A DNA stretch of 61,910 bases. Origin: a virus (lineage: Duplodnaviria; Caudoviricetes). The notes beneath the pieces were generated by a model that worked only from the letters and a program-made list of their open reading frames with translations, was not told the DNA's origin and ran no database searches. Of the stretch, positions 20,844-23,300 are shown one piece after another. The stretch covers positions 1-61,910 of the IMG/VR virus record IMGVR_UViG_3300000234_000005; one strand, 5' to 3'. Made by a program: the position numbers and the translations under genes. How positions within the stretch are numbered: position 1 is the first letter of the stretch; every line of letters starts with the position of its first letter.

Positions 20844-23300
20844 ATGCGTGCTAACATCTTAAACGGCCAACTTCCTTTCCCTTCACTAGCTAAAGTTGAA
20901 GACCTATTTGGTAAAGAAATCGCTACCTTTGCTAACTCCATGTGGGGAGCCATTTGGCATAACTACTTAGTCAGCAAAGGCTCAATCTCCTCCGCTTACT
21001 GGCATGACAAACTGAACAACTCCGAGGTATTCAACATCCTCGTAGTCTCTCTATCGAACGCTGGATGGATTGTATCTCACGCAATCCCCGAACGTAACTG
21101 GCTTGAAATTCACCTCAATGAATCAAAGCTTTACGAATTCGTATCAGCCAAAGAAATTGAAGAAGTACGTGCCAACTTCAAGTTTGCAAAGTACCGTCTG
21201 CGCAATACTGAAGCGCAAGCACCTGACCTAGTCCGTGCCAACGGTAAAACCAAAGTCACCGGCCTATACCGTGAAGGGTTTCAGAAAGCTGCCAATACCG
21301 AATTTAGTTTCGATATTGAAGCTCTACAAGCCAACAAGGAAGTCATTGGGAAGAACCTCACCAAGTCTATGACCAAAGTACGGGAATTCTATCCTGAAAT
21401 GGGAGCATCCATTGCAGACTACGATGCTATTAGCGTTGACATCCTTGACTGGCTCACTCACACCAAGGAAACCTTCACTCGCGGTAATACCTTCCTTGAT
21501 TCCCGAGGTCGTGCCATTAGTTCTTCTCTTTCCAAAGTAGCAAACCCAATATCTTCTAAAGATTTTCGAGCACTACTCATCATTCCCAAGAAGTATCGAG
21601 TCAAAGCTACCCAAGCTGGTGCAGATGCCATCTTCCTCTTCGTTGCAGAACTTGCTGGCTATAAAGCTGGCCCTTCAGTAGACGATAAGACAGCATATGG
21701 TATCGAATGCTGGTTGAGTAACTTCAACCATACATTAGATGTAACTAACGAGTCTGACCGAGCTGATGTGTACGAAAACATCTGGCTAACCCGTCTATAT
21801 GAAGACCTCAATAAGTTCTTCCAGCTCAAAGGTGTCGAGGGTGAACTGATCAAGCAATTCGCCTTATTCACTGGCGTATTTGATATGGATAGCACTCCAG
21901 ACTATGAGTGGACAGTACCTGTAGAAATCGACCAAGGTGCGTTGCCTAACATTGGCGCACTGTAAACCTTGTGAACTCAGGGAAAGCTAAGTCCGAAAGG
22001 ATATGCTAATCCTGATCTAAGCCTAGTAATAGGAAAGAGCAGAGACTATCGAACGACACAGTAATGTGAATCTAGTAGAGTAGGTACCAAGTGGTATCGA
22101 AGCGCAAGGCACTAGAAATAGTGATGATATAGTCCAATCCTTATAGAAATATAAGGCTGTACCATTAGTTTTGGTACGAGCAAGAATTAACGATTCTTGT
22201 TGAATAAAAGCAATGCTCCAGTACATCGCCATGCTCCTCAATGATGCTACCTTAGCTTCGTTAACAAACATGGTAGAAGGTACATTAACTGACCCTTGGA
22301 AAATTGAAGGACTACCACGCAAAATGGTAAAGGAAGCAGCAACTCCTATGCTGTATGGCTCTACGAAGAACGCTGCTGCACTTTGGGAGCAAAACAATAC
22401 TACCTATACCCTCCAACATATTGAAGTCTACAACAAGGCTCTCAGTACCGGAGGATTAGGTATTGCAAACTCCTTCAAAGACTTCGTTCTGAACTACTGC
22501 AAACCACAGGAGAAAATGCAAATCACCATCTGGAATGATACCTTTGATATCGAGTGTAATCGTTACCGCAATATTGGTGATAAAACCAATCTGTACAGGG
22601 TATACGACACTGAGTCAAAAGCTGTCAAATCAGTGTTCCATACCACCACTAAAGAAATAGCTGACTTGGGGCAATTCAAGCGTTACTTCCAGACACTGCT
22701 CGTTTTCTAACTGTGGGCGAGCAGTATAATATAAACAGGGTTAATTGCTGGAACGCTAATGGCTAACGCCTATGCCAATCAGCAGCCAAGCTTAGGTAGG
22801 AATACCTTTGAAGGTTCAGAGACTAGGATAAACAATCTAGAACAGATTATGAAATCCGTAAGCGAGTCAAGTGACCGCTGAAACGCCCTGCTCTACAGTA
22901 ATGTAGATGAAGATATAGTCCAGCACTCCATTGAAAAACGGAGACTAATTGACATACTTGTTAGGTAATTCAATTAGGTTCAGAGTAACGCCTGAATTAA
23001 TATCTGCACAACCTTGACTCACAAGTAGCTGATGAGGTTAGTTATGCTATTGCCTCGCAAGGTGGTTTCGTAATTGACATTCATGACGCATTTATTCTCA
23101 ATCCAGAGGATGCACCAACAGCTCGATCTGTGTATTCTCAACTAATGGAGGAAATCAGAAGCAACCGTAAGGATATTCTTACTGCTTTCTTCCAGTCCAT
23201 TGGAATCACCGCAGAAGCCTCAGAAGCATGGGAACAACTTCAGTCTAAGGTAACCCCATTGCCTGATGACTTTAAGTGCTTTATGATGGCTATGAAGTAA
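20844..23300 (+). CDS. Single-subunit T7/N4-type DNA-dependent RNA polymerase; three exons (20844-21942, 22211-22704, 23007-23300), 628 aa
   Basis: The spliced product restores DSRGR, motif A VPVEIDQGASMLQ, motif B RKMVKEAATPMLYG, LVHNLDS and motif C IHDAF. Confidence 0.9.
21943..22210 (+). mobile_element. Group I intron 1 in RNAP (268 nt, no ORF)
   Basis: P1 GTGCGT/GCGCAC with U.G at the splice site; P10 CATTG/CAATG; R element CAGAGACTA; S element GATATAGTCC; terminal G at 22210. Confidence 0.92.
22705..23006 (+). mobile_element. Group I intron 2 in RNAP (302 nt, no ORF)
   Basis: P1 ACTGCTCGTT/GGCGAGCAGT; P10 TGTG/CACA; P AATTGCTGGAA; Q AATCAGCAGCC; R TCAGAGACTA; S AAGATATAGTCC; terminal G at 23006. 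Confidence 0.92.

Follow-up and report, generated by a model that had tools for sequence, protein, structure and literature searches.

A predicted single-chain RNA polymerase of the N4 RNAPII branch encoded by a gene with two group I introns

Does the plus strand between positions 20844 and 23300 of the viral contig IMGVR_UViG_3300000234_000005 (61,910 nucleotides, the whole of which is called the window below) encode one RNA polymerase, a set of separate polypeptides or the remains of a gene? An earlier note on this DNA had proposed a compact single-chain enzyme resembling RNA polymerase II (RNAPII) of phage N4, masked by two group I introns lying in its active-site motifs. In our view, the locus very probably contains a single gene that encodes a 628-residue single-chain polymerase of the N4 RNAPII branch and is interrupted by two selfish group I introns that contain no open reading frame (ORF).

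Two group I introns within a 628-codon frame

Reading of the sequence, an Rfam search and a script that evaluates the intron pairings together gave a gene of three exons and two group I introns, all on the plus strand (20844-23300). Exon 1 (20844-21942, 1099 nucleotides) comprises codons 1-366 and the first base of codon 367, exon 2 (22211-22704, 494 nucleotides) the remainder of codon 367 through codon 531, and exon 3 (23007-23300, 294 nucleotides) codons 532-628 and the stop codon. The spliced frame of 1887 nucleotides specifies 628 residues plus the stop, i.e. a protein of about 71 kDa. The exon-exon junctions are GGTGCGT (ending at 21942) ^ CAATG (starting at 22211) and CTCGTT (ending at 22704) ^ CACAAC (starting at 23007). 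Intron 1 (21943-22210, 268 nucleotides) lies inside codon 367, three full codons past the Asp of EID in motif A (EIDQGA, residues 361-366), and intron 2 (22705-23006, 302 nucleotides) immediately precedes the HNLD motif (residues 532-535).

Both insertions match the Rfam group I intron model RF00028, whose gathering score is 50, on the plus strand and well above that score (82.3 bits at 21855-22156 and 74.8 bits at 22699-22943). In intron 1, six of six P1 pairs are formed, the one at the splice site being U.G, as are five of five P10 pairs; the internal guide sequence (21950-21960) provides the P10 part at 21950-21954 and the P1 part at 21955-21960. In intron 2, whose guide sequence is at 22712-22724, nine of nine P1 pairs and four of four P10 pairs are formed. 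The last base of each intron is a G (22210 and 23006). Neither intron contains an endonuclease gene or a credible ORF, the lone plus-strand ORF being a 40-residue frame in the ribozyme core of intron 2. The splice sites, the 628-residue product, the junction strings and the placement of the introns relative to motif A and HNLD all agree with what the earlier note had predicted.

The exons divide the catalytic motifs among themselves. Exon 1 encodes the N-terminal half, which resembles N4 RNAP1, the DSRGR motif (nucleotides 21498-21512) and EIDQGA (21924-21941); exon 2 encodes the rest of motif A (SMLQY), motif B with PMLYGS (22345-22362) and a beta-rich insertion; exon 3 encodes HNLD, which corresponds to the region of T7 H784, and motif C, IHDAF (23079-23093). 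In the unspliced frame, stop codons occur seven codons into intron 1 and two codons into intron 2. The sole ORF listed for exon 3 starts at a GTG at 23130, downstream of IHDAF, and no in-frame ATG, GTG or TTG was found before IHDAF in this exon. As the earlier note had stated, the exon that carries motif C is thus missing from the ORF list, and a full-length product requires removal of both introns.

Comparison with relatives bears on the pairings and on the boundaries. The intron that locus L022 carries at the motif A site differs from the window intron on both strands of P1 and of P10, the changes being compensatory, and paired compensatory changes in P1 and P10 are likewise found in the introns that phage AD45-P1 and locus L015 carry at the intron 2 site. 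The joined 628-residue protein shows no indel at either junction when aligned with the full-length intron-less homologs (seven of the seven aligned, namely the metagenomic proteins P0005, P0008, P0010, P0023, P0029, P0038 and P0108). The intron-less homologs, 602-634 residues long, are colinear with the spliced product. Moreover, the gene calls of other homologs end exactly at junction 1 (P0002 and P0006) or at junction 2 (P0001).

The same boundaries were recovered from contigs of public sequencing runs, which are DNA contigs in all four comparisons and hence show boundaries and presence/absence polymorphism at the DNA level. Contigs of runs X2, X3 and X6 contain alleles without intron 1: position 21937 is followed by 22211 with five letters in between, which are synonymous variants of 21938-21942, so that the net loss is exactly 268 bases. 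In a contig of run X4, the loose ends at 22211 and 23005 continue across both exon-exon junctions in intron-less form. The changes that adjoin the junctions in the intron-less alleles are synonymous only. Since the joined protein is free of indels with respect to its homologs and the intron-less alleles end at the same bases, chance can be excluded; the identity of the introns, their exact boundaries and the restored frame are established. Note that the depth of the X4 contig is 97-150 over intron 2 and 33-44 over the neighbouring part of exon 2 (within 22684-23099); related introns seem to be present in several of the genomes or genes sampled there.

As to the activity of the window introns, their intact ribozyme features suggest that they splice. 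The precursor RNA would fold such that guanosine attacks after U21942 and U22704, each held in the U.G pair of its P1; P10 would then align the 3' exon, and ligation of the exons would take place directly behind the terminal G (22210 and 23006, respectively). Only the doubly spliced messenger would encode an enzyme with every catalytic motif.

Family and fold of the predicted protein

All the catalytic motifs are present in the joined product (DSRGR at residues 219-223, EID at 361-363, KEAATPMLYGS, HNLD at 532-535 and IHDAF at 556-560) and, with the exception of motif B, they align to their counterparts in T7 RNA polymerase. When 20 full-length homologs were combined into a profile (A1) and this was compared with the PDB, the sole significant match was chain B of entry 6dt7, the RNAP2 subunit (gp16) of N4 RNAPII, with an E-value of 1.6e-5 and motifs A, B and C aligned; hhalign to gp16 gave 92.6% and an E-value of 4.5e-7. 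A phmmer search of the PDB with exon 2 returned chance matches only. In PHROGs, the protein is covered by three families of unassigned function: 27203 (residues 1-247), 22493 (residues 258-365, with its positions 112-275 in exon 2) and 22720 (exon 3).

The fold was predicted by AlphaFold2 for the homolog P0005, with A1 as input, and the model has a predicted local distance difference test score of 92.9 and a predicted template modelling score of 0.88. Foldseek placed T7 RNA polymerase and the mitochondrial RNA polymerase (POLRMT) at the top of its list with E-values of about 4e-12 (best 3.6e-12). According to VIA-align, residues 124-627 of the model superpose on residues 267-882 of T7 RNA polymerase (Z 25.8, root-mean-square deviation 4.0, 434 residues), and residues 265-628 on residues 4-404 of N4 gp16 (Z 19.0, 307 of 404 residues aligned, 18% identity). 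The palm, fingers and thumb fold is shared with T7 RNA polymerase and POLRMT, which are single chains as well; the identity in the structural alignments is 13-15%, and the predicted enzyme differs from T7 RNA polymerase (883 residues) in being about 255 residues shorter, with a much reduced N-terminal domain.

The assignment of the product to the RNAPII-type enzymes, in the N4 RNAPII branch of the T7-type single-subunit RNA polymerases, is well supported by the profile match to gp16 and by the modelled fold, and the earlier note had correctly recognized an RNAPII-like enzyme, as well as the greater length of T7 RNA polymerase. The protein is presumed to be active as a polymerase and to have a role in the infection programme. 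By homology with N4, it would probably transcribe the middle genes, perhaps together with a cofactor that binds single-stranded DNA; an N4-like transcription programme for this phage is an extrapolation.

One chain or two genes

N4 RNAPII is a heterodimer encoded by two genes, gp15 (RNAP1, 269 residues) and gp16 (RNAP2, 404 residues). The window enzyme resembles it in the matches to gp16 at the level of profile, hhalign and structure, in its motifs T/DxxGR, A, B and C and in its total length (628 versus 673 residues), and differs from it in being one polypeptide, in having two introns, in an identity of only about 18% and in an RNAP1 half that can barely be detected by sequence. Exon 1 is part of a continuous ORF (20844-21965) that runs, in one frame, through the seam at which two separate genes meet in N4 and in the AD45 phages (nucleotides 21579-21620, residues 246-259, IIPKKYRVKATQAG). 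The seam is shared: residue 4 of N4 gp16 superposes on residue 265 of the model, and the AD45 large subunit starts at P0005 residue 266. Two genes of N4 and of the AD45 phages thus correspond to one in the window, whose enzyme is a fused variant of N4 RNAPII and not a canonical heterodimer. The earlier note had likewise inferred a fused, minimal RNAPII-like enzyme.

Alteromonas phages vB_AmaP_AD45-P1 to P4 are the closest cultured relatives: a tblastn search with exon 2 against 50,697 phage records matched only five AD45 records, with 47% identity. They carry an intron at the site of window intron 2, with the covarying P1 and P10 mentioned above. By contrast with the window, the polymerase of AD45-P1 is split into two genes and lacks intron 1, and the intron that it does have bears a GIY-YIG gene. 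The order there is a 247-residue gene, an unrelated 84-residue ORF, a 276-residue gene, the group I intron with the GIY-YIG gene and a final exon of 97 residues. In the AD45-P1 record (L001, KF005317, 2520-5883), AD45P1_00220 corresponds to the RNAPII small subunit and AD45P1_00230 and AD45P1_00240 to the exons of the large subunit, all annotated as hypothetical, while AD45P1_00235 is the GIY-YIG endonuclease inside the group I intron (55.7 bits in Rfam). A passage in Garcia-Heredia et al. (2013; PMC3821669) reports that the AD45 phages lack RNAPII-like genes. The record is to be corrected in this respect, since AD45-type phages encode a very divergent RNAPII that the AD45-P1 annotation presents as three hypothetical proteins and an endonuclease. 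The primase encoded by the window is also closest to that of the AD45 phages (54%), followed by other N4-like phages. The host phage lineage is related to N4 (in a passage of PMC10654107), and one paper assigns the AD45 phages to the genus Efbeekayvirus within the N4-like viruses.

Twelve of 20 IMG/VR loci encode the seam in one frame (seven without insertion and five with introns), seven are split, one of these (L020) being AD45-P1 itself, and one ends at the contig edge. Complete split forms are found at L007 (250 and 371 residues) and L016 (246 and 372 residues), and small ORFs separate the two subunit genes at L008, L009 and L017. The earlier note had regarded subunit boundaries of relatives at the intron sites as a point that would speak against its proposal. 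No such boundaries were found: the true splits are at residues ~248-262, as in N4. At L015, the homolog changes frame over a gap of 123 nucleotides (4897-5020, P0005 residues 308/311). A group I intron would not fit into this gap; a linker rich in indels, a frameshift or an error of assembly may lie behind it.

An exhaustive search retrieved 369 representatives (at 50% identity) with E-values of at most 1e-3, of which 205 matched at 1e-30. Among the best 150 representatives, the seam lies within one protein in 112, and 79 extend over the whole enzyme (509-657 residues). Single-chain forms are thus common and dominate the diversity of the family, and the window enzyme is no rarity. Three representatives (P0170, P0185 and P0201, 404-411 residues) have their start at profile positions 234-238, some 25 residues ahead of the seam seen elsewhere, which may correspond to a second split point or to miscalled starts. 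In a FastTree phylogeny of 122 N-terminal halves, the window belongs to a clade of five single-chain rows that lies among split rows with moderate support (94 and 83). On this unrooted tree, in which rows were scored as split by length alone, three state changes are needed, but the well-supported branches force only one, and we claim no direction, be it fusion or fission.

The introns among relatives and their interpretation

Insertions recur at or near the same motifs in the family. The motif A site is occupied in the window and in L011, L019 and L022. The conserved His is immediately preceded by an insertion in the window, in AD45 and in L015, and L018 has one two codons upstream of that position; in L019, a further insertion lies just after motif C. 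Motif B is probably a further site, as P0004 diverges after ATPML and 3 of the 150 representatives end at profile positions 396-400. Overall, at least four insertion sites coincide with motifs A, B or C or lie no more than about 25 residues away from them. Of nine intron ORFs in relatives, seven encode GIY-YIG or HNH domains. One or both introns are missing from many relatives; P0001, the closest relative, lacks intron 1.

The same holds for classical N4-like phages. Phage pYD6-A has two Rfam-positive introns in its RNAP2 gene, of which one precedes HSIDG by a few codons and the other follows IHDA; in its record (L024, NC_020849, 2217-4455), which lists two 'RNA polymerase' fragments only, the introns score 74.1 and 81.7 bits and an HNH ORF lies behind the second. 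In JWAlpha, motif B of the RNAP2 gene contains an insertion, and in ZC08 and ZQ2 the insertion directly follows the HD of motif C. At the DNA level, the RNAP2 insertions of the classical N4-like phages are 68-76% identical to the window introns, and intron 2 is 74-76% identical to introns of the AD45 phages and of Pseudomonas phage ZC08. At its gathering score, Rfam did not report the 983-nucleotide insertion of L022 or the JWAlpha insertion; the insertions of L022, JWAlpha, ZC08 and ZQ2 were taken as introns on the strength of DNA similarity and, for L022, of P1, P10 and the terminal G.

Some of these insertions have been described. Babenko et al. (2019; bioRxiv 10.1101/542787) report, in a passage on the G7C-like coliphages N4G2 and Sz33, that an insertion of about 800 base pairs in gene 16 (RNAP2) is a spliced motif B intron, as judged from reverse transcription PCR and a junction peptide. 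This case resembles the window in that the catalytic RNAPII gene in an N4-like phage has a group I intron at a catalytic motif; it differs in that there is one intron, with an endonuclease ORF, in a two-subunit enzyme, whereas the window has two ORF-less introns (at motif A and before the His) in a single chain and is known from DNA only. In JWAlpha, according to a passage in Wittmann et al. (2014; PMC3915230), RNAP2 is interrupted and its functionality was questioned, and a passage in PMC4193335 is to the same effect. Amgarten et al. (2017; PMC5418858) note, in the section concerned, an endonuclease inside ZC08 RNAP2 and propose a single-unit ancestor that was split by such an insertion. No literature on a single-chain RNAPII, on the AD45-type enzyme or on two introns in it was found among CC-licensed PMC and bioRxiv texts.

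A group I intron in an N4-type RNAPII is therefore already known, and the intron biology itself is ordinary; what is new is the combination of a single-chain form with two introns at motif sites, without any new mechanism. Several group I introns in one phage gene are known from Twort nrdE, and phage T4 has such introns in td, nrdB and sunY. The window introns resemble these in being small introns of the self-splicing type at conserved sites of essential phage enzymes, where they occur with or without homing endonuclease genes. They differ in their host gene, which encodes a transcription enzyme, whereas the Twort and T4 genes serve nucleotide or DNA metabolism.

The most plausible interpretation of the window introns is that they are selfish homing elements, or descendants of such elements without an endonuclease, which target an essential gene at its most conserved codons, because intron-less alleles are found in the same metagenomes, the introns of relatives carry endonucleases and inteins are likely elsewhere in the window. 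A general rule that homing elements sit at conserved sites is stated in a passage of a review (PMC12908238). By occupying their target sites, the introns may also shield the gene from the intron endonucleases of relatives. As for the inteins, four other genes of the window are much longer than their family profiles or are matched in separated stretches, namely those for the portal (1284-3836, 850 residues), the large terminase (11805-15356, 1183 residues), thymidylate synthase (45381-47294, 637 residues) and a helicase (58926-61706, 926 residues). The helicase has a match to a LAGLIDADG endonuclease at residues 476-652. These features suggest that the genes contain inteins, which the pattern of PHROG matches makes probable for the terminase, the portal and the helicase, and the genome seems loaded with selfish elements.

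The earlier note had raised another interpretation, in which the introns could act as a regulatory device: the kinetics of splicing would delay or gate production of the polymerase and thereby time the switch to middle transcription. The requirement for both splicing events and the position of the gene early in a plus-strand block are compatible with such a timer, yet intron-less alleles of near-identical phages share the same samples, P0001 dispenses with intron 1, the gene is an uninterrupted single chain at 7 of the 20 viral-contig loci, and homologous introns, at the same or nearby sites, carry homing endonucleases. In addition, the insertion sites vary by lineage but always fall at conserved motifs, which is predicted by homing and is not needed for a timer. 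Together with the likely inteins, these observations make the timing role improbable, and this part of the earlier proposal is not upheld.

We regard as still less probable that the insertions do not splice, the gene being expressed in pieces that assemble or being a decaying pseudogene. It is true that exon 2 has an ATG two bases past the 3' splice site (22213), that genuine split forms of the enzyme exist and that the DNA polymerase of coliphage 10Gb is reported to be expressed 'in pieces' (in a passage of bioRxiv 10.1101/542787). However, both insertions are complete group I ribozymes with P1, P10 and the terminal G intact, exon 3 is preceded by in-frame stops just upstream in the intron and offers no start before motif C, the catalytic residues and the frames are all intact, and the true split forms break elsewhere than at the intron sites. 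Slightly less probable again is that the protein is another family A-type polymerase (a DNA polymerase or a primase-like enzyme) and not a transcriptase. It would account for the lack of a Pfam RNA_pol match and for the presence of a family A DNA polymerase (5dku, Z 14.6) in the structural list, but ranks 1-49 of that list are all RNA polymerases (Z 15.9-25.8), the sole significant sequence match in the PDB is N4 RNAP2, the T/DxxGR motif and the His of HxxD typical of T7-type RNA polymerases are present, and the contig has a primase and a helicase of its own.

Several points weigh against the interpretation that we prefer, a single-chain RNAPII-type gene interrupted by two selfish introns. The match of the profile to gp15 is weak (hhalign E 0.2, with only the DxRGR region aligned), and hhalign to T7 RNA polymerase gave a probability of only 16%; since these two sequence matches are weak, the family assignment rests on the gp16 profile match and on the fold. 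The folded protein is P0005, 44-45% identical to the window exons, and not the spliced product of the window. No Pfam RNA polymerase domain was found in the three exons or in four full-length homologs; the family is too divergent for the Pfam model of the T7-type enzymes (RNA_pol, PF00940). Splicing of the window introns is a prediction from DNA sequence, and as they carry no endonuclease gene any present-day mobility is conjectural. Finally, N4-like phages (Schitoviridae) also have a virion RNA polymerase, but no gene for one was seen on the 61.9-kb contig, which may be incomplete; hence the extrapolation noted above for the N4-like programme.

In a wider perspective, the window may belong to a large undescribed clade of single-chain 'mini' RNA polymerases of the T7 family (about 590-660 residues) in AD45-like, N4-related phages; these would have interconverted with two-gene forms at one structural seam, shared with N4, and their gene would be a hot spot for mobile introns. 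To us the arguments for and against this view are evenly balanced. To our knowledge, the members of this clade are shorter than any other single-chain polymerase of the T7 family. If the clade is real, the origin of the heterodimeric N4 enzyme becomes directly testable: a natural single-chain version, with fused and split forms close to one another in the tree, offers a direct means of asking whether a single chain gave rise to the heterodimer. A single-chain T7-family polymerase of about 600 residues could also interest enzymologists and tool builders. The presence or absence of the introns varies within single natural populations, which could reflect endonuclease-mediated competition between co-infecting phages. 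On the practical side, 16 of the gene calls among the best 150 representatives terminate at the motif A site and another 7 at the site before the His; gene callers thus break the gene at recurrent points, and intron-aware calling is needed.

The remaining observations concern the surroundings of the gene. A 213-residue ORF (20142-20783) lies directly upstream of it, and a 216-residue ORF precedes the small-subunit gene in AD45-P1 (L001, 1320-1970); the two are likened by size only, and the 213-residue protein is a candidate polymerase cofactor. Directly 3' of the stop codon, a consensus scan revealed a terminator-like hairpin with a T run on the plus strand (23308-23335), as a pattern match only. 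The G+C content is 44.1% for the polymerase exons, 39.6% and 40.7% for the introns and 36.3% for the whole contig. The Rfam search that detected the introns also identified four transfer RNAs in the contig.

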